DNA of 64,000 bases, taken from positions 27,055 to 91,054 of the IMG/VR virus record IMGVR_UViG_3300028797_000139; one strand, given 5' to 3'. Position numbers and translations under genes: made by a program. The notes beneath the pieces are model-generated. The model was not told the origin of the DNA, ran no database searches, and was given only the letters and a program-made list of their open reading frames with translations. The stretch comes from a virus. Its lineage: Duplodnaviria; Caudoviricetes. This document shows, in pieces, positions 16,791-34,664 of the stretch; within the stretch, counting starts at the first letter, position 1, and every line of letters starts with the position of its first letter.

Positions 16791-17717
16791 ATGTCGGCTA
16801 ATGTTGAAACTATGATGAGTGTGCGCGAAGTTCCTTGGCATGGACTCGGAGAAATTGTTCAAGAAGCACCCACAAGTAAGGATGCGCTTGAACTGGCTGG
16901 GCTTAACTGGAATGTAAACAGTAATCCCATTTATGATGTTAATGGTAACGAAATTAAGGGGTTCAAGGCTAACACAAGAGATAGCGATGGTAGTGTTCTT
17001 GGCGTTGTTACCAATCGTTATAAAATTGTACAGAACTTTGAAGCCTTTGATTTTACAGATGCCCTTCTTGGCGAGGGCGTAACTTATGAGACAGCAGGAA
17101 GTCTGAAAAATGGAAAGGTAATTTGGCTTCTTGCCAAGATGCCTGAAAGAAAGATTCTTGGCGATAAATTTGACCCCTATATTTGTTTCACAAATAGTCA
17201 TGATGGCACGGGTGCTATTCGTGTTATTTCTACACCTATTCGTGTAGTGTGTAATAACACGCTTAACCTTGCGCTCAATACTGCCAATCGTAGCTGGTCT
17301 ACGAAGCACATGGGCGACATGAATAGTAAACTTCAGGAGGCAAAGCACACACTTCAGCTTGCTAATGATTATCTTGACTGTCTTTCTGAAAGTGCTGAAA
17401 AGCTTGCTGAAGCTAAGTTTATGCCTGAAGATGTGAACATGGTTCTTGACGAAATGTTTCCTAAGAACGATGAAATGTCAGAACGCAAGAAGAATAATAT
17501 TGATACAGTAAAAAGTGGCATTATTGCTTGTATGCTTGCACCTGACCTTGTTCAGTTTATGAATACTAAGTGGGGTTTTCTGAACGCAGTTAGCGACTAT
17601 ATTACCCATGCCAATCCTGCAAGACTAACAGATAGTTACGCAGAAAATAATTGGGGTAGAATCATGAATGGTCATCCTATTATGGATAGAGCTATGGCGT
17701 TGGTTAGTGCGAAGTAA
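16791..17717 (+). CDS. DUF932-family phage/plasmid protein
   Basis: MSANVETM..VREVPWHGLG, ETAGSL, NSHDG, TPIRVVCNNTL. Confidence 0.9.
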   Translation: MSANVETMMSVREVPWHGLGEIVQEAPTSKDALELAGLNWNVNSNPIYDVNGNEIKGFKANTRDSDGSVLGVVTNRYKIVQNFEAFDFTDALLGEGVTYETAGSLKNGKVIWLLAKMPERKILGDKFDPYICFTNSHDGTGAIRVISTPIRVVCNNTLNLALNTANRSWSTKHMGDMNSKLQEAKHTLQLANDYLDCLSESAEKLAEAKFMPEDVNMVLDEMFPKNDEMSERKKNNIDTVKSGIIACMLAPDLVQFMNTKWGFLNAVSDYITHANPARLTDSYAENNWGRIMNGHPIMDRAMALVSAK

Positions 17718-17726
17718 ATAAAATAC

Positions 17727-17775
17727 TTGACAAAACCACCTTTCTGTGTTATAATAAGCACGAAAGGTGGTTTTG
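17727..17775 (+). promoter_or_regulatory. promoter with anti-SD spacer (module copy 2)
   Basis: TTGACA-17-TATAAT; CAAAACCACCTTTC pairs with GAAAGGTGGTTTTG. Confidence 0.8.
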
Positions 17776-17825: not shown

Positions 17826-18191
17826 ATGAGTGAAATAAATTATAATTTGAAAACCAATATTCCACAATATATACCTAAAGATAATCCACCAGAATTAAAG
17901 GAATGTTTTAATATTGCTAAATATAAAGAATTAAAAGAAAAAATTATTAATTCCAATGTTACAGATGTAGAGAAAAAATTCTTATTGTGGGCGGCTCATC
18001 GTCACGTTGTCTTTAATTATTCTAAAATAGCTGATTATTATGCTTCTGCGTCTAAAGAAATGCAAGAACTTATGGAAGATTCAGCCTTGGTAATTATTGA
18101 TTTTGATGACGCTATTGCCAAAGGATATGTAAAATTAAACAAAAGAATTAATAGCATCTTAGAGAAGAGATTAGAGGAAAATGAGAACTGA
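17826..18191 (+). CDS. small protein associated with the glycosyltransferase genes
   Basis: RHVVFNYSKIADYYA...SALVIIDFDDAI; overlaps the start of the GT gene. Confidence 0.65.
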   Translation: MSEINYNLKTNIPQYIPKDNPPELKECFNIAKYKELKEKIINSNVTDVEKKFLLWAAHRHVVFNYSKIADYYASASKEMQELMEDSALVIIDFDDAIAKGYVKLNKRINSILEKRLEENEN

Positions 18192-19026
18192 TTTTGCTAT
18201 TTTTATTATGTCTTATAATAGACCTAATAATATTGCTACATTACGCACTTTAACTAAGGCCAATTATACTGGTCTTTATTATATTATTGTTAGTGATGAT
18301 GACCCTCAAATAGACGCATATAAATCATTATATAAAGATAAATTATATATTTTTAATAAAGAAGAAATAGAAAAATCTTTAGATACTTATGATAATAATG
18401 GCAGTAGGGCGTGTATTTTATATGCAAGAAATTATTGTTTTACATTGGCTCAAAAATTAAAGCTAAAATATTTTTTAGAATTTGATGATGACTATATTGA
18501 ATTAGCCTACAGATACCCACAGGATAACAAATTAAAAATCTGCAATATAAAAGAATTTGATACAATCGTTGATATTTTTATAGATTTCTTAAATGATACC
18601 AACGCTACATCTGTTGCCTTTGCCCAACATGGAGATTTTATTGGGGGTGTACAAAATGATTTTATTCAAACAAGAATTAAAAGGAAAGCTATGAATAGCT
18701 TTTTTTGCAAAACATCAAATAATTTTCAGTTTTATGGAAGAATGAACGATGATGTAAATACTTATATTGGATTGGGCAAAATTGGTAAATTATTTCTAAC
18801 TGTGTGTGATGTTTCCCTAAAACAAAAACATACCCAACAAACAAAAGGTGGCATGAGTGAATTTTATAATGAAAGTGGCACTTATTCCAAATCTTTCTAT
18901 ACAATTTTGGCTAATCCCGATTGTGTTTCTATTGGAACTATAAATAATCAACATATAAGAATACATCATAGAATAAATTGGAATAACGCTGTTCCAAAAA
19001 TTATTAGTGGGAATTATAAGAAATGA
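18181..19026 (+). CDS. TET-associated/GREB1-like GT-A glycosyltransferase (putative DNA base modifier)
   Basis: IMSYNR, YARN, FDDD metal motif, GDFIGG, GRMNDDV, GGM, IHHRINW..AVPKI. Confidence 0.75.
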   Translation: MRTDFAIFIMSYNRPNNIATLRTLTKANYTGLYYIIVSDDDPQIDAYKSLYKDKLYIFNKEEIEKSLDTYDNNGSRACILYARNYCFTLAQKLKLKYFLEFDDDYIELAYRYPQDNKLKICNIKEFDTIVDIFIDFLNDTNATSVAFAQHGDFIGGVQNDFIQTRIKRKAMNSFFCKTSNNFQFYGRMNDDVNTYIGLGKIGKLFLTVCDVSLKQKHTQQTKGGMSEFYNESGTYSKSFYTILANPDCVSIGTINNQHIRIHHRINWNNAVPKIISGNYKK

Positions 19027-19889
19027 GTAATTTTGCAATTTTTATTATTACACATGAACGAGCAAATAATTTATTAACTTTAGATACGTTAAAAAAATGT
19101 AATTATCATGGAAAAATTTATTTAATCATAGACAACGAAGATAAAGATATGGAAATATATAAATTATATACAAATAAACAAATATCCTTATCAATATTTA
19201 ATAAAAAAGAAATTGCGTTAAGAGCAGATACTTCTCTTGAAACCAAGGATAATTTATCTATTTCTTGTTGTTTATTTCCAAGAATATATTGTGAATTATT
19301 TGCAAAGAAATTAAACCTTAAAAATTTTTTAGTATTGGATGATGATATTAAAAATTTTTATCATCGAGTAAATATTGATAACAAATTAAAAGAAATTAAA
19401 ATCAATGATTTTGATTTAGTTTGTCAAGAATTTTGTAATTATTTAAATGAAGCCAACATTGCGATATTGGGCTTTGGCAATACTGGTTCTTATTTAGGTG
19501 GTATACATAGTTTTGATACTGACTGTAGAAGAAAATGCGCTAATGCGTTTTTTCGTAATACTAATATTAATTTCGATTGGAAGTGTTGTGTGTTAGAAGA
19601 TGTTGTGTCTTGTATTCATAATGGAAGTTTGGGGTCTATTGTTTTAGAATTAAAATGTATTAAACTTGAGGCTTTTGCATATCATAATAGTAAAAACAAT
19701 AATAATTTTGGTGGTATGAATAATTTATATAACAAATTATCAGATTATCATGCTTTATATTCTATTATATATAATCCAATAGCCTTTACAATAATACAAA
19801 ATAAACATAATAAATTTATTCTTAGAACAGAATATAATAAAATTTTACCTAAAATTATAAGTAGTAAATATAAAAGGATTGAGATATGA
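19023..19889 (+). CDS. second, divergent TAGT-like glycosyltransferase
   Basis: FAIFIITHER, LDDD, LEDV, GGM, LPKIISS; clear paralogue of the preceding gene. Confidence 0.7.
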   Translation: MSNFAIFIITHERANNLLTLDTLKKCNYHGKIYLIIDNEDKDMEIYKLYTNKQISLSIFNKKEIALRADTSLETKDNLSISCCLFPRIYCELFAKKLNLKNFLVLDDDIKNFYHRVNIDNKLKEIKINDFDLVCQEFCNYLNEANIAILGFGNTGSYLGGIHSFDTDCRRKCANAFFRNTNINFDWKCCVLEDVVSCIHNGSLGSIVLELKCIKLEAFAYHNSKNNNNFGGMNNLYNKLSDYHALYSIIYNPIAFTIIQNKHNKFILRTEYNKILPKIISSKYKRIEI

Positions 19890-20836
19890 GTACAAATATT
19901 TCTGAAGGAAAAATATTTAATTATTTAGATAGAGTTTTTGGCGAACAAAATCCTATTGTGGCAGATATTTTTTTAACCAATTATTGTAATAATCACTGTC
20001 ATTATTGTACCTATAAAAGATGGGACTTAAATTCTAATAGTCATTATATGAATTTTGATAATTTGGTTAAATATGTAAAACGCTTACAAGAATTAAAAAT
20101 TGTAGGATTTATTTTAACTGGTGGAGGAGAGCCTACTGTAAATCCAGATTTTGATAAAATAGCTAATTATTTAACTCAAAATAATTTGCATTGGGGTATT
20201 AATACTAATTTTAATGTATTAAAATTAATTTCTCCTGACTATTTGAAAATTTCGCTTGATGGATACAATGAGCAAACATACCAAAATAATCGTGGAGTAA
20301 ATCAATATAACAAAGTAATTAATAATATTAATAGTTATATAGAATGGAAAAATAACAATCATATTAAAACTGCCATAGGGATTCAAATGATTGCTATGAA
20401 TCCTAAAGATGTATTAGAATTTTATAATGCTCATAAACATTTAAAAGTAGATTATATGTCTATTAGACCCGTAGAATCTACCAATGGAGAATATTATAAA
20501 AATCAAAATTTTAATAATATTTTAGATACAATTAATACTTTGAACAATAAAGATAAAAGAATCTTTGCCAATTTCAAATGGAATTTAATTGGCGCTCAAG
20601 AAAATTCTTGCGTTGCGAACTGGTCGCAAATAGCTATTAATGAATATGGCGAGGTAATGTATTGTTGCCACAAACCTTATGAAATAATAGGAAATGTTAT
20701 GGACAATAATATATTAGAGAAAAAGAAACAACACATTACCAATATGCAAATGTGCGACATCCCTTGCAGATTAACCGCCCCCAATAGAGAAGTTAAAAAT
20801 TTATTAGAGCCAAAAAAGAATATATATTTTATATAA
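19886..20836 (+). CDS. radical SAM protein with SPASM/twitch domain
   Basis: CNNHCHYC, LTGGGEP, NTN, C-terminal C...GEVMYCC. Confidence 0.9.
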   Translation: MSTNISEGKIFNYLDRVFGEQNPIVADIFLTNYCNNHCHYCTYKRWDLNSNSHYMNFDNLVKYVKRLQELKIVGFILTGGGEPTVNPDFDKIANYLTQNNLHWGINTNFNVLKLISPDYLKISLDGYNEQTYQNNRGVNQYNKVINNINSYIEWKNNNHIKTAIGIQMIAMNPKDVLEFYNAHKHLKVDYMSIRPVESTNGEYYKNQNFNNILDTINTLNNKDKRIFANFKWNLIGAQENSCVANWSQIAINEYGEVMYCCHKPYEIIGNVMDNNILEKKKQHITNMQMCDIPCRLTAPNREVKNLLEPKKNIYFI

Positions 20837-20845
20837 TTAATATAC

Positions 20846-20890
20846 TTGACAATTCCTCCTTTATATGGTATAATCACTATATAAAGGAGG
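20846..20890 (+). promoter_or_regulatory. promoter with anti-SD spacer (module copy 3)
   Basis: TTGACA-17-TATAAT; CCTCCTTTATAT pairs with ATATAAAGGAGG. Confidence 0.8.
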
Positions 20891-21348: not shown

Positions 21349-21398
21349 TTGACAAATCTCCTTTTGTATGGTATAATAAAGTATCATATGAAAGGAGA
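21349..21398 (+). promoter_or_regulatory. promoter with anti-SD spacer (module copy 4)
   Basis: TTGACA-17-TATAAT; TCTCCTTTTGTATG pairs with CATATGAAAGGAGA. Confidence 0.8.
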
Positions 21399-21405
21399 AT
21401 TTATT

Positions 21406-22197
21406 ATGATAAAAATATTTAATGAAAAATGCGAAGAAACCATAAGGAAAATGGTAAAATTCAATAAAAAAGTAGATGTTATTTTAACCTCTCCTCCTTA
21501 TAATACTGGCAGACCTTTTAATTCAGAAAGAAGCAGAAATAATAATGAAAGTAGATATGATATTCATATTGATAATCTTTCCGCTAAAGAATATAGAAAT
21601 TGGTGGGTAGATTTGTTTAATTCTTTTGACAACATACTTTCTTCAAACGGTGTAATTCTTTGGCAAGTATCTTATGGTAATGACGCTTCTATGAATACAG
21701 AGAGTATTGGTTTAACTTGGGGGGGGCTGAGTGATATAATTGATTATACATCATTTACGATTGCTGATAGAATTGTATGGAAAAAGAAAAACGCCCTACC
21801 AAATAATGTAAGTTCTAATAAACTAACACGAATTACAGAAGATATTTATGTTTTTTGTCGTAAATCAGAAATTAAAACATTTAATGCAAATAAACCCATT
21901 AGCAAAGTAGGTAGAAATGGTCAAACTTTTTATAAAAATATTTTTAATTATATTGAAGCCCCAAATAATGATGGAAAATGCAATTTAAACAAAGCTACTT
22001 ATAGTAGCAGTTTGTGTGAACAATTACTCAATATATACGCTAAAGAAAAAGCCACTATTTATGACCCTTTTATGGGGACTGGTACAACGGCTGTTGCTTG
22101 CAAAAGAATGGGATTAAATTGTTTTGGTAGCGAAATTAGCGAAGCACAATGTAATTATGCCAAAGAACGACTAAATAAAACTGTGTTTAACAATTAA
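21406..22197 (+). CDS. beta-class N4-C/N6-A DNA methyltransferase
   Basis: TSPPY precedes DPFMGTGTT. Confidence 0.9.
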   Translation: MIKIFNEKCEETIRKMVKFNKKVDVILTSPPYNTGRPFNSERSRNNNESRYDIHIDNLSAKEYRNWWVDLFNSFDNILSSNGVILWQVSYGNDASMNTESIGLTWGGLSDIIDYTSFTIADRIVWKKKNALPNNVSSNKLTRITEDIYVFCRKSEIKTFNANKPISKVGRNGQTFYKNIFNYIEAPNNDGKCNLNKATYSSSLCEQLLNIYAKEKATIYDPFMGTGTTAVACKRMGLNCFGSEISEAQCNYAKERLNKTVFNN

Positions 22198-31719: not shown

Positions 31720-31932
31720 TTGGAAATTATTTTATATTCAACGCATTGTCCTAAATGTAATATTCTTGAAAAGAAATTAAATGAAAAAAACATTTCTTTT
31801 AGATTAGAAACAGAAATTGAAAAAATGCCAAAGCAAGTAATAAATTCTAATACAGTACCTTGGCTCAAAGTTAATGATTGCTTAATGAATTTTGGCGAAG
31901 CTGTGAAGTGGGTGAATTCTTATGGAAATTAA
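31720..31932 (+). CDS. glutaredoxin/NrdH-like redoxin
   Basis: CPKC and TVP motifs; upstream of nrdD. Confidence 0.8.
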   Translation: MEIILYSTHCPKCNILEKKLNEKNISFRLETEIEKMPKQVINSNTVPWLKVNDCLMNFGEAVKWVNSYGN

Positions 31933-34664
31933 CTTAAATCTTTCCAAAGATTTTGAAAGATGTTTAGATGATTTGAAAAAGAAATATGGGGAAGACTTTG
32001 AATATATTAATGGCGTTCATCCAAGTCAATTAGACTTTTCTGAATTTATTAATAATTTTGTTCAAAAAGATACTTTAGCAGATGTCAGTATTGACCCTAA
32101 TTCTAATGCTAACAATCGTGATATTCGGTCTTTTATGACAGAAAAAGGAAAAAGTAGTGATAAATTGTTTGCCTTAAATAAAATTTTTATCACTATTAAA
32201 AAGCAATGGGGATTAAGAACAGCCAAGCAGTGGTTAGAGCAGGAATTTAATAAAGGTTTATATTTGAACGATTCAGCCACAGCCAGTTATTTCCCGTATT
32301 GTTGGGCTAACGATTTAACAAGATTAGCTACAGAAGGTTTATTTTTCTTAAAAAATTATAATAATCAACCTCCCAAGCATTTAACTACTTATTTCGATGA
32401 TGTCATTGAATTTGTTTCTTTCTTATCTAATCGTCAATCGGGAGCTGTCGGTTTACCTAATGTTTTAATTTGGGCCTATTATTTTTGGAAGAAAGATGTA
32501 GTAGAAGGGTATTACATGAAAGACCCTGATTATTATCTAAAGCAACAATTTCAAAAATTTATATTTAGATTAAATCAACCTTTTCTTAGAATTGACCAAA
32601 GCAGTTTTACTAATGTATCAATTTTTGATAGATGCTATTTAACCGAATTATTTGGCGATATAGAATTTCCTGATGGTAGTTTTGCTATTGACCAAATTGA
32701 AGAATTAATTAATGTGCAAAAAGTTTTTATGGAAGTGGTTAGTGAAATAAGAGAAGAAAATATGTTTACATATCCCGTTGAAATAATAGCGGCCTAACGG
32801 GGCGACCCGTTTTGCAAACCCTGTGAACTCAGGGAAACTCTGAATAATACACCTTCTTTAAGCGGGGGTGATAAAATGGCAAGAAAAATAGGCATACCAG
32901 CCGAAAAGATACTTGAATTGCACAATCAGGGATTATACGACCAAGAAATAGCAAATATTCTCGGATGCGAAAGAAGCAATATCACTATTAGACTAAAGAA
33001 GCTCGGAATTACAAATCGCAGAAGCAAAATCGAAGATATTAAACTTAGAAATCGCATTAGTGAGTCGCTAATTGGAAGATATTGCGGTGAAAATAATCCA
33101 AATTATAAAGGATATAACGACGAAAAACAAATAGCGCGTGGAATTTTTAAGACATTCTCCAAACGACTAATAAGAAATGCGGATTACACTTGTGAATTTT
33201 GTAAACGTCGCGGTGGAAATATGGAATGTCACCATATTAAACCGTTCAACATTATCTTCACCGAGTTTATCAACAATAGGTACGATGGCAACATCAATAC
33301 TATCTATTCCCAACTGATGCAATACGACGATTTTATCAATGAAACTAATATGGTGGTGCTGTGTGAACAGTGTCATTATGATGTGCATTATTCAGACAAT
33401 CCTGAACTAAGCCCATATAGATGGGAAAGCGCAACGACTATCTCGAAAGAGAGTACATCGTAAGCTATTGACGATGGAAGCGCAGGGGGGCTAATTCTTA
33501 GTCCATGATATAGTCTGCTCTCTACGGCGACGTAGAGCTGTTCGAAAGAACGGCAACGGCGTAGCGAACCGTTGTGAACACAAAGGATTAACATATTCGC
33601 TTCTTTATAAGGATGGCAAGTTCGTCGATGAACCCTTTGCAAAATGGTGTTCAAGCCATAACATCAAGTGGAGCGATAGCAACTTCTTTGTAAGTGATAA
33701 TGTTGGGGTTTTGTCTAATTGTTGCAGACTCTTATCAAACACCCAAGAACTTGACCCCTTTATTAATTCCATTGGTGGAACCGCCTTATCTGTAGGTTCT
33801 TGTAGAGTTAGCACAATTAATCTTGCCAGAATTGCTTACGAATCTAAATTTAATAAAAAGAAGTATTTAGAAATACTTAAAAATCGTGTTGAACTAAATT
33901 GCAAGGCATTGTATTCTATGCGTTATATTTTACAACGTAATATAGAAAAAGGTTTATTGCCTAACTATCAAGCAGGTGCCGTAGAATTAAATAAACAATT
34001 TTGCACCATTGGCGGGATAGGAAATTTTGAAGTTATGGATATGTTTGGATTAATTAAAACAGACGAACTTGGTAATAAATTTTATTCTAATGAAGCTATA
34101 GATTTTACATTAGAAATTCTAAATATCATTAATGAAACAAAAGATAATTTTGTGAATATTCATAATTGTGATTTTAAGTTTAATCTTGAAATGATTCCTG
34201 CTGAAAATTGTGCAGGGGTTATGGCAACTGCTAACAATTTAATTTATGAAGATAATAAATATTTTATTTTATCTAATCAATGGATTCCTTTAATGGAAAA
34301 ATGTACCATTCAAGAAAAATGTCATTTAGGTTCTTTATTTGATAAACGCTGTGGTGGTGGATGTATAGCCCATATTAATACAGAAGGACGCTTCCCAACA
34401 GAAGAAAGTGCGTGGCAAATGTTGAACTATGTAGCTTCGCAAGGTGTAATTTATTTTGCATTTACTACCAAAATTTCTGTATGTAAAGATAAACACGCTT
34501 TTATAGGCACTTCCACTTGTCCTAAATGTGGGCAACCTATAGCTGATACTTATTCAAGAGTAGTTGGATTTTATGTACCTGTATCTTCTTATCAAAAAAT
34601 TCGTAAACAAGAATTTGATAAGCGCCAATGGTATAATGCAATGTCAATGGATAAAATGATATAA
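31922..34664 (+). CDS. nrdD: class III anaerobic ribonucleotide reductase, exons 31922-32778 and 33587-34664 (644 aa predicted)
   Basis: spliced FTYPVLTYSLL junction; PPKH, QSGA, NCCRL, PAEN, glycyl-radical SRVVGF. Confidence 0.92.
32779..33586 (+). mobile_element. group I intron in nrdD carrying an HNH gene
   Basis: P1 CCGU/GCGG with U.G; R GCAACGACTA, S GATATAGTCT; ends in G; removal restores frame. Confidence 0.9.
32876..33463 (+). CDS. intron-encoded HNH endonuclease (HTH + HNH)
   Basis: CEFC, ECHHIKP, LCEQCH; 3' end runs through the intron core. Confidence 0.85.
   Translation: MARKIGIPAEKILELHNQGLYDQEIANILGCERSNITIRLKKLGITNRRSKIEDIKLRNRISESLIGRYCGENNPNYKGYNDEKQIARGIFKTFSKRLIRNADYTCEFCKRRGGNMECHHIKPFNIIFTEFINNRYDGNINTIYSQLMQYDDFINETNMVVLCEQCHYDVHYSDNPELSPYRWESATTISKESTS

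Follow-up and report, generated by a model that had tools for sequence, protein, structure and literature searches.

We analysed a four-gene operon in a 64,000-nucleotide stretch of a Caudoviricetes phage genome (hereafter the window), which spans bases 27055-91054 of the 91,054-bp IMG/VR record IMGVR_UViG_3300028797_000139 (95% complete, 32.8% GC). The operon encodes a small partner protein, two GT-A glycosyltransferases of the TAGT family (TAGT1 and TAGT2) and a radical S-adenosylmethionine (SAM) enzyme, and appears to be a variant of a widespread phage module built around an invariant core, namely the partner and a TAGT-family GT-A glycosyltransferase. Our preferred reading, held tentatively and at a probability of about 0.4, is that the partner-TAGT core attaches sugar to phage DNA and that the radical SAM enzyme serves as an optional, oxygen-free tailor of that sugar. 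A preliminary description of the window had proposed a TET-less cassette for anaerobic DNA hypermodification; the TAGT and radical SAM content, the origin from a phage of an anaerobe and the DNA-handling surroundings agree with that proposal, in which DNA as the target is the part that we infer. The four overlapping genes that it had pointed out were recovered from open reading frame (ORF) coordinates and family hidden Markov models (HMMs), and consecutive ORFs overlap by 11, 4 and 4 nt:

17826-18191, plus strand: small partner protein, 121 aa; C-terminal match to PHROG 620 and homology to the partner ORFs of related loci
18181-19026, plus strand: TAGT1, 281 aa; conserved core enzyme, GT-A glycosyltransferase of the TAGT/JGT family; PF20691 103.3 bits, phrog_842 E 3.6e-63
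19023-19889, plus strand: TAGT2, 288 aa; divergent second TAGT, apparently a lineage-specific insertion; PF20691 53.2 bits
19886-20836, plus strand: radical SAM enzyme, 316 aa, with a putative twitch-like auxiliary Cys cluster; PF04055 57.3 bits (cut-off 29.5)

A partner-TAGT core in diverse phages

Both glycosyltransferases scored above the PF20691 (TAGT) cut-off of 27.5 bits, were confirmed on a six-frame search of the genome and matched PHROG 842, which is annotated as "beta-glucosyl-HMC-alpha-glucosyltransferase". The GT-A motifs R...DDD...(E/D)DV are retained in both proteins, with R14, D102-D104 and D191 invariant in the TAGT alignment; TAGT1 carries NDDV, and TAGT2 carries DDD and LEDV. 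What had been described as a TAGT-like character is thereby placed by HMM search in the TAGT family proper, which is said to have been defined by Iyer et al. in 2013.

The small partner is best taken, by sequence comparison, as the C-terminal domain of a group of ParB_N partner proteins and not as an anonymous peptide. It aligned with positions 131-216 of the 217 in PHROG 620 ("ParB-like partition protein"; E 7.6e-8). The gene directly 5' of the TAGT in related loci usually encodes a protein of about 250 aa with an N-terminal ParB_N domain (PF02195), the C-terminal half of which is 44-60% identical to the 121-aa ORF (70 of 80 and 76 of 79 related loci). According to the partner alignment, a partner made of the C-terminal domain alone is kept in many phages, this one included; a Pfam search of the 121-aa protein gave no match and thus no ParB_N, nor did any ParB_N domain match anywhere in the 91-kb record. 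The AlphaFold2 model of the partner (predicted local distance difference test score, pLDDT, 82) shows a small helical domain behind a disordered but conserved KY.xK..IPQY.PS motif. Fold searches with this model stayed within noise (best values: Foldseek E 1.3, VIA Z 3.6), and a profile search against PDB sequences found no match. The closest counterpart of the ParB_N domain of the long partners was found at the N-terminus of type II DNA methyltransferases fused to ParB (PADLOC MTase_II, E 9e-23), and ParB homologues that lack a DNA-binding domain are proven activators of phage DNA thymine dioxygenases (PMC13229309).

Scanning of viral contigs with the single radical SAM protein gave nothing, and the loci were found by an alignment-based scan; similarly, the first TAGT alignment was too divergent to find loci and was replaced by another. 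Among the loci found through the radical SAM enzyme, 70 of 80 combined the radical SAM gene with the partner and one or two TAGTs, mostly in the order partner-TAGT-radical SAM and in a few cases partner-radical SAM-TAGT. Relatives of TAGT1 were encoded by at least 540 viral contigs. The 79 closest TAGT1 loci carried the partner directly upstream in 76 cases and the radical SAM enzyme in only 10, and their TAGTs were 44-50% identical to TAGT1 with and without the radical SAM gene alike (41-50% across the related loci from both searches). The conserved core is therefore the partner plus TAGT, and not a partner-TAGT-radical SAM triad. On a FastTree tree of TAGT1, presence of the radical SAM gene changes at least five times, and TAGT1 of this phage nests among radical-SAM-less relatives.

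Prophage copies were found in Blautia, Clostridium, Muriventricola, Eubacteriales and Phascolarctobacterium, all of which are strict anaerobes. Cultured phages also carry the pair, directly 5' of the terminase gene; among them are a phage of Porphyromonas gingivalis, Lactobacillus phages phi jlb1 and JNU_P11, E. coli phage vB_EcoS-683R6, halovirus HHTV-2 (Haloarcula) and Nocardia phage NTR1. Searches of five cultured-phage records with the core (four complete genomes) found neither a radical SAM enzyme nor ThyA or TET. The two Lactobacillus phages, which infect L. gasseri, have an unannotated gap of 1.0-1.4 kb immediately 5' of the ParB-TAGT pair (L082:2812-4208 in phi jlb1 and L083:3168-4217 in JNU_P11), which may hold a pac region or a non-coding RNA. 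That a radical SAM gene might be hidden 5' of ParB in phi jlb1 was considered and rejected, as the 1.4-kb gap has no long ORF (none >76 aa) and no tblastn match. In vB_EcoS-683R6 the pair follows a trkG gene (L098:1604-4933). This order presumably recalls trkG-ynaK-ydaY of the Rac prophage of E. coli K-12, and our assumption is that ynaK/ydaY may be remnants of a partner-TAGT module.

The usual genomic association of TAGTs with a TET/JBP or ThyA homologue was not seen. The whole 91-kb record yielded no TET/JBP protein, ThyA-type hydroxymethylase or C5-methyltransferase, and the 39 larger viral records that carry the cassette, of which 15 reach at least 90% completeness, yielded no ThyA-like gene or above-cut-off TET/JBP protein (the TET search, here and throughout, being one without a positive control). 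The ThyA-type family comprises dCMP and dUMP hydroxymethylases and 5-hydroxy-dCMP (5hodCMP) synthases. Every gene between the promoters that flank the operon is accounted for, and none is a TET/JBP-fold dioxygenase. The absence of TET from view, noted in the preliminary description, thus extends to the remaining genome, as does that of a hydroxymethylase gene. The phage encodes ThyX, dUTPase, a split NrdD, NrdG, PolIII-alpha, a RecD-like helicase, RecJ, a primase and a DnaB-like helicase. Since ThyX, dUTPase and NrdD/NrdG are among these genes, the phage is expected to make canonical dTTP and to live anaerobically, and any base change would therefore be post-replicative. NrdD/NrdG and the Clostridia that serve as prophage hosts of the family likewise support the earlier suggestion of a phage of an anaerobe.

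The second TAGT varies even between close relatives. A sister phage (L192), whose radical SAM enzyme is 86% identical, has the partner, one TAGT and the radical SAM gene, with no counterpart of TAGT2; because of this arrangement, TAGT2 appears to be a recent AT-rich insertion, and at 22.6% GC it is the compositional extreme of the cassette. The proposal that the two glycosyltransferases build a disaccharide is accordingly plausible for this phage but does not describe a conserved property. On a 115-kb viral contig (L130:2946-8370) the small partner is followed by five TAGT paralogues, four in tandem and the fifth beyond a cytidylyltransferase-like gene, making this locus a candidate for a version of the module that builds oligosaccharides.

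The radical SAM enzyme and the target of the module

The radical SAM enzyme contains the motifs CNNHCHYC and GGGEP, with C34-X3-C38-X2-C41 and GGGEP invariant in 20 homologues. The SPASM domain is a seven-Cys C-terminal domain binding two auxiliary clusters; its profile (PF13186) matched at 17.5 bits, below the 21.5 cut-off, and only 4-5 C-terminal Cys are conserved (C242, C260, C261, C290 and C294), which suggests a single twitch-like cluster rather than a full SPASM domain. The radical SAM half of the initial radical SAM/SPASM label therefore stands, and the SPASM half is better replaced by a twitch-like domain. Homologues numbered 733, with 49-86% identity among the matches listed, and the mean column identity across 20 diverse members was 69%. 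The family is uncurated and resides mostly on phage and prophage contigs; no curated NCBIfam family matched above cut-off. One 441-aa protein (P0149), with a TAGT domain at residues 3-205 followed by the last 245 residues of the radical SAM family, was considered as a Rosetta-stone fusion and rejected; a chimera created by deletion or a faulty gene call is the probable explanation, because its radical SAM part lacks the first 70 residues, CX3CX2C included.

Fold and profile searches placed the enzyme at the superfamily level only and gave no substrate. The nearest folds to its AlphaFold2 model (pLDDT 82.6) were SuiB, SkfB, DesII, anSME, viperin, MoaA and BlsE, with TM-scores of about 0.6 and 11-18% sequence identity in the fold alignments. 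We count the sugar- or nucleotide-acting DesII, BlsE, viperin and MoaA among these modelled neighbours as favouring sugar tailoring. When 1.8 billion representatives were searched with a profile, members of the family itself scored below an E of about 1e-50, and the next tier lay at about 1e-36 to 1e-32. These nearest outgroup enzymes lay beside GT2 glycosyltransferases in all four of the contexts read, in clusters that also hold flippases, methyltransferases, deacetylases or epimerases, and a 24%-identical relative in phage MW202801 belongs to a glycan cluster that adjoins the capsid gene. Sugar-related genes recur around the TAGTs as well. Loci without the radical SAM gene may have, beside the TAGT, a His-phosphatase/cytidylyltransferase fusion, an NAD-dependent epimerase/dehydratase or a cytidylyltransferase, the last of these in the phage with five TAGT paralogues; one divergent radical-SAM cassette also encodes a sugar deacetylase of the PIG-L type and another radical SAM enzyme. 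As far as their families indicate, these accessory enzymes all make or tailor sugars or sugar donors. Sugar tailoring is preferred because the radical SAM enzyme constantly accompanies glycosyltransferases, within and outside its family, and because sugar enzymes adjoin the TAGT in other loci.

Of the two roles first offered for the radical SAM enzyme, activation of the base or tailoring of the sugar, the latter fits the comparative data better. Base activation would make the enzyme an oxygen-free counterpart of TET/JBP (5mYOX): hydrogen would be abstracted from the thymine C5-methyl or another base position, the auxiliary cluster would oxidise the radical, water would add, and the hydroxyl would be glycosylated by TAGT1 and then TAGT2 to give a base-J-like product. 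Such a scheme would account for the lack of TET/JBP and ThyA-like genes here and in the 39 cassette-bearing records and would suit strictly anaerobic hosts, in which a dioxygenase would be inactive. The ParB-type partner has its parallel in the ParB-dependent 5mYOX cassettes, the radical SAM gene is strongly conserved at that 69% and translationally coupled to the TAGT, and ThyX with dUTPase points to canonical T, any change of which would follow replication. We nevertheless consider it unlikely. The core mostly occurs without radical SAM, TET or ThyA, including in the phage of the strict anaerobe Porphyromonas, and TAGT1 is as close to TAGTs without a linked radical SAM gene (up to 49-50%), among which it nests, as to those with one. 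The outgroups of the enzyme belong to glycan clusters and not to nucleic-acid enzymes; in profile and fold searches the enzyme resembled neither spore photoproduct lyase nor any other radical SAM enzyme that acts on DNA, and radical SAM hydroxylation of a DNA base is without precedent. Because the core is found without the radical SAM enzyme, even in the phage of an anaerobe, and because this TAGT1 is of the radical-SAM-less type, the acceptor is most likely independent of that enzyme, and base activation is the less parsimonious of the two roles.

Four considerations favour DNA as the target: precedent within the family, a partner whose ParB_N is of the methyltransferase type, surroundings of replication and packaging genes, and hosts too diverse for anything but a universal acceptor. 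The phage TAGT/GT-A enzymes characterised to date, and JGT, have DNA as their substrate (PMC13390438; bioRxiv 2023.12.21.572611). The cassette always lies among DNA-handling genes, either in the RusA/RecU-terminase interval or in the PolA-sliding clamp interval; in this phage the neighbours are primase, DUF932, methyltransferase, RecJ and PolIII-alpha genes. Since the hosts span archaea, Gram-negatives and actinobacteria, the acceptor must be universal.

An alternative is a target other than DNA, either a protein (the KY.xK..IPQY.PS motif of the partner, or a virion or packaging protein) or a cell-envelope glycan, with the radical SAM enzyme modifying the peptide or the sugar. The TAGT-family member GREB1 does O-GlcNAcylate a protein (PMC7968844), and among solved folds the wall-teichoic-acid transferase TarP, encoded by a prophage, comes closest to the phage GT-A DNA transferases (bioRxiv 2023.12.21.572611). 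In addition, peptide maturases head the fold matches of the radical SAM enzyme, the nearly invariant Tyr/Pro motif lies in a low-confidence N-terminal segment of the partner, some family members sit between portal and capsid genes, and the distant relative mentioned above is in a glycan cluster adjoining a major capsid gene. Yet hosts ranging over archaea, Gram-negative, Gram-positive and actinobacterial lineages rule out a shared envelope polymer, the partner's ParB_N is of the type found on DNA methyltransferases, the module lies among replication and packaging genes, with methylases and a Lar-like gene in the sister phage, and the operon has no evident signal peptide or membrane protein. 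Of the virion or host-surface glycan raised in the preliminary description, the common envelope polymer thus falls away, and a non-DNA target in general is improbable.

Still further from the data is RNA or a free nucleotide, that is, a modified tRNA base, or an NDP-sugar or nucleotide for signalling or anti-defence made with a viperin-like radical SAM enzyme. The enzyme gave weak matches to the prokaryotic viperin models of PADLOC (E 2e-10) besides the viperin fold match, and the phage encodes several tRNAs. This similarity is generic to radical SAM proteins, viperins have no conserved C-terminal Cys cluster, the tRNA genes are about 14 kb from the cassette with no link to it, and the ParB_N partner and family precedent point to DNA, so that we regard such a target as very improbable. 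A known anti-phage defence system was considered and rejected: PADLOC gave only the generic viperin-level similarity for the radical SAM enzyme, and none of its defence-protein models matched the small partner or either TAGT.

In the preferred reading, sugar modification of phage DNA, the partner occurs either as ParB_N plus a helical C-terminal domain or, as apparently in this phage, as the C-terminal domain alone, and it probably docks or activates the transferase, by analogy with the ParB homologues that act with phage thymine dioxygenases. The core would most likely use a host NDP-sugar to glycosylate phage DNA after its replication, and TAGT2 probably attaches a further sugar, in the manner of the T6 TAGT on glucosyl-hydroxymethylcytosine. 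The radical SAM enzyme would be an optional accessory, so far seen in phages of strictly anaerobic Clostridia-type hosts, which most likely remodels the sugar without oxygen through hydrogen abstraction by the 5'-deoxyadenosyl radical (dehydrogenation, epimerisation, dehydration or deamination), the auxiliary Fe-S cluster being a possible electron sink. Its substrate could be the NDP-sugar donor or the DNA-linked sugar. The likely benefit is that phage DNA is shielded from restriction and other nucleases.

Several points weigh against this reading. The target is deduced, and no experiment exists on any partner-TAGT module without TET or ThyA. We know of no glycosyltransferase whose acceptor is an unmodified DNA base, and no enzyme that would generate an acceptor was found, which leaves a chemical gap in the core pathway. 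The argument from sugar-enzyme neighbours is guilt by association. The folds ranked first for the radical SAM enzyme are those of the peptide maturases SuiB and SkfB, although at a TM-score of about 0.6 these say little about substrate. Most radical-SAM-positive TAGTs fall in one large clade, and a clade-specific acceptor would also fit. In one relative (L191) the radical SAM gene (63% identical) is 4 kb from the TAGT, beyond a methylase and RecJ. Some family members (L063, L072, L075 and L077; 46-52% identity) are flanked by portal/Mu-F-like genes on one side and scaffold/capsid genes on the other, and no TAGT is visible on these contigs, which are fragmentary and at most 45% complete. A bolder version, which we find rather doubtful, holds that the core sugars phage DNA with no hydroxymethyl- or hydroxy-pyrimidine precursor at all, either on the canonical base directly or, where the radical SAM enzyme is present, on an acceptor or with a sugar prepared by oxygen-independent radical chemistry; this would be a third route beside the ThyA-type and TET-type ones, widespread in phages of gut anaerobes.

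Boundaries and neighbours of the operon

Two promoters bracket the cassette, and a methyltransferase gene follows at a short distance:

17727-17755, plus strand: cassette promoter, TTGACA-17-TATAAT with TG extension, 12/12 consensus match
20846-20890, plus strand: next promoter and hairpin, the 3' boundary of the operon; 12/12 promoter at 20846-20874, 15-bp stem
21407-22197, plus strand: N6/N4 DNA methyltransferase; PF01555 109 bits, own promoter at 21349

Both bracketing promoters are of the perfect 12/12 extended -10 type, as expected from the two promoter modules first described, and the 15-bp stem pairs the downstream ribosome-binding site (RBS) with the promoter spacer. The cassette had also been called AT-richer than its neighbours; at 25.5% GC it is in fact the lowest of all 3-kb windows of the 91-kb genome (mean 32.7%, sd 2.7). 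The DUF932 gene immediately 5' of it (16791-17717) has 40.8% GC and 34% GC3, versus 32.8% GC for the genome, and the juxtaposition of this GC-high gene with the GC-lowest cassette suggests mosaic acquisition. The amino-methyltransferase two genes downstream was confirmed by its match to the N6_N4 methylase family. Its mechanically called ORF begins at a TTG inside its own perfect promoter (21349-21377), and the true start is probably the ATG at 21407, preceded by an RBS at about 21391-21398. The gene is its own transcription unit, two genes 3' of the cassette, and belongs to the context of the operon with no proven role in its pathway. Methyltransferase genes flank the cassette in relatives L191 and L192 too; in the latter, the cassette lies amid several N6/N4 methylase ORFs and a gene for a Lar-like restriction-alleviation protein (L192:10956-11177 and flanks), and the region looks like an anti-restriction island. 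Elsewhere in the window the NrdD gene is split, with 31922-32797 covering profile positions 16-207 and 33711-34664 positions 261-562; a 195-aa ORF without a Pfam match (32876-33463) lies between the halves, and the split is probably an intron or mobile-element insertion.

Relation to known modification systems and implications

To our knowledge, all known phage DNA sugar modifications start from a hydroxylated pyrimidine that is made by a ThyA homologue or an oxygen-dependent TET-like enzyme. The T2/T6 beta-glucosyl-HMC alpha-glucosyltransferase and the 5mYOX/ThyS-associated phage GT-As resemble the TAGTs described here in being phage-encoded, in their PF20691 and PHROG 842 membership and in their GT-A motifs, and tandem enzymes of those systems can build di- or oligosaccharides on DNA, as may the two TAGTs. 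They act on 5-hydroxymethylcytosine (5hmC) or 5-hydroxymethyluracil (5hmU) from a ThyA-type hydroxymethylase or TET-like dioxygenase, or on 5-hydroxycytosine (5hoC) in RB69, and have neither a radical SAM partner nor a small partner of this type, whereas this phage and its relatives lack a ThyA- or TET-type enzyme. The ParB-dependent 5mYOX cassettes (O'Toole et al., PNAS 2026, PMC13229309) likewise place a ParB-family helper without a classical DNA-binding domain beside a post-replicative DNA-modifying enzyme. Activation of 5mYOX176, however, needed the NBD and the C-terminal domain of ParB, and those cassettes carry kinases and amino-acid:DNA transferases (PMC13229309), whereas in this phage the partner consists of the C-terminal domain only, no 5mYOX is present and the accompanying enzymes are TAGTs.

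The sugar tailors DesII, BtrN and BlsE have, like the enzyme studied here, a partial TIM-barrel radical SAM core and a Cys-rich twitch-like C-terminal domain. This enzyme stands always beside glycosyltransferases and matches DesII and BlsE in fold, but the known tailors work in antibiotic biosynthesis on free NDP-sugars or glycosides, whereas it is part of a phage DNA-handling module and shares no more than the 11-18% identity given above. NeoN and AviX12 are radical SAM sugar epimerases with auxiliary clusters. A precedent for a phage radical SAM enzyme acting on a DNA-attached group, as proposed here, comes from the thymidine hypermodification of phage M6, where a radical SAM isomerase, in work attributed to Lee et al. 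(NAR 2021), reportedly remodels a group already attached to the DNA base. That pathway is said to start from pre-replicative 5-hydroxymethyldeoxyuridine (5hmdU), followed by a kinase and an amino-acid transferase, and unlike the present cassette it has no glycosyltransferase.

Literature searches combining radical SAM, ParB, glycosyltransferase and phage/terminase returned no description of a TAGT-radical SAM cassette and no test of a TET-less partner-TAGT pair. A large survey of phage GT-As carried out pathway analysis only for contigs with a 5mYOX or thymidylate-synthase homologue (bioRxiv 2023.12.21.572611), a framing under which a TET-less partner-TAGT class would go unreported. Phage DNA sugar-modification modules as such are known; there is a real chance of new chemistry here.

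The module is common, occurring in prophages of dominant gut Clostridia and in cultured phages, and the acceptor of its partner-TAGT core is the most interesting question that it raises. If DNA is not modified, the label "beta-glucosyl-HMC-alpha-glucosyltransferase" on many phage genomes would be misleading. If DNA is modified, the module would imply a new acceptor or a new oxygen-free tailoring chemistry, and would bear on the resistance of gut phages to restriction and CRISPR, on native-DNA sequencing and on the toolbox of DNA-labelling enzymes.

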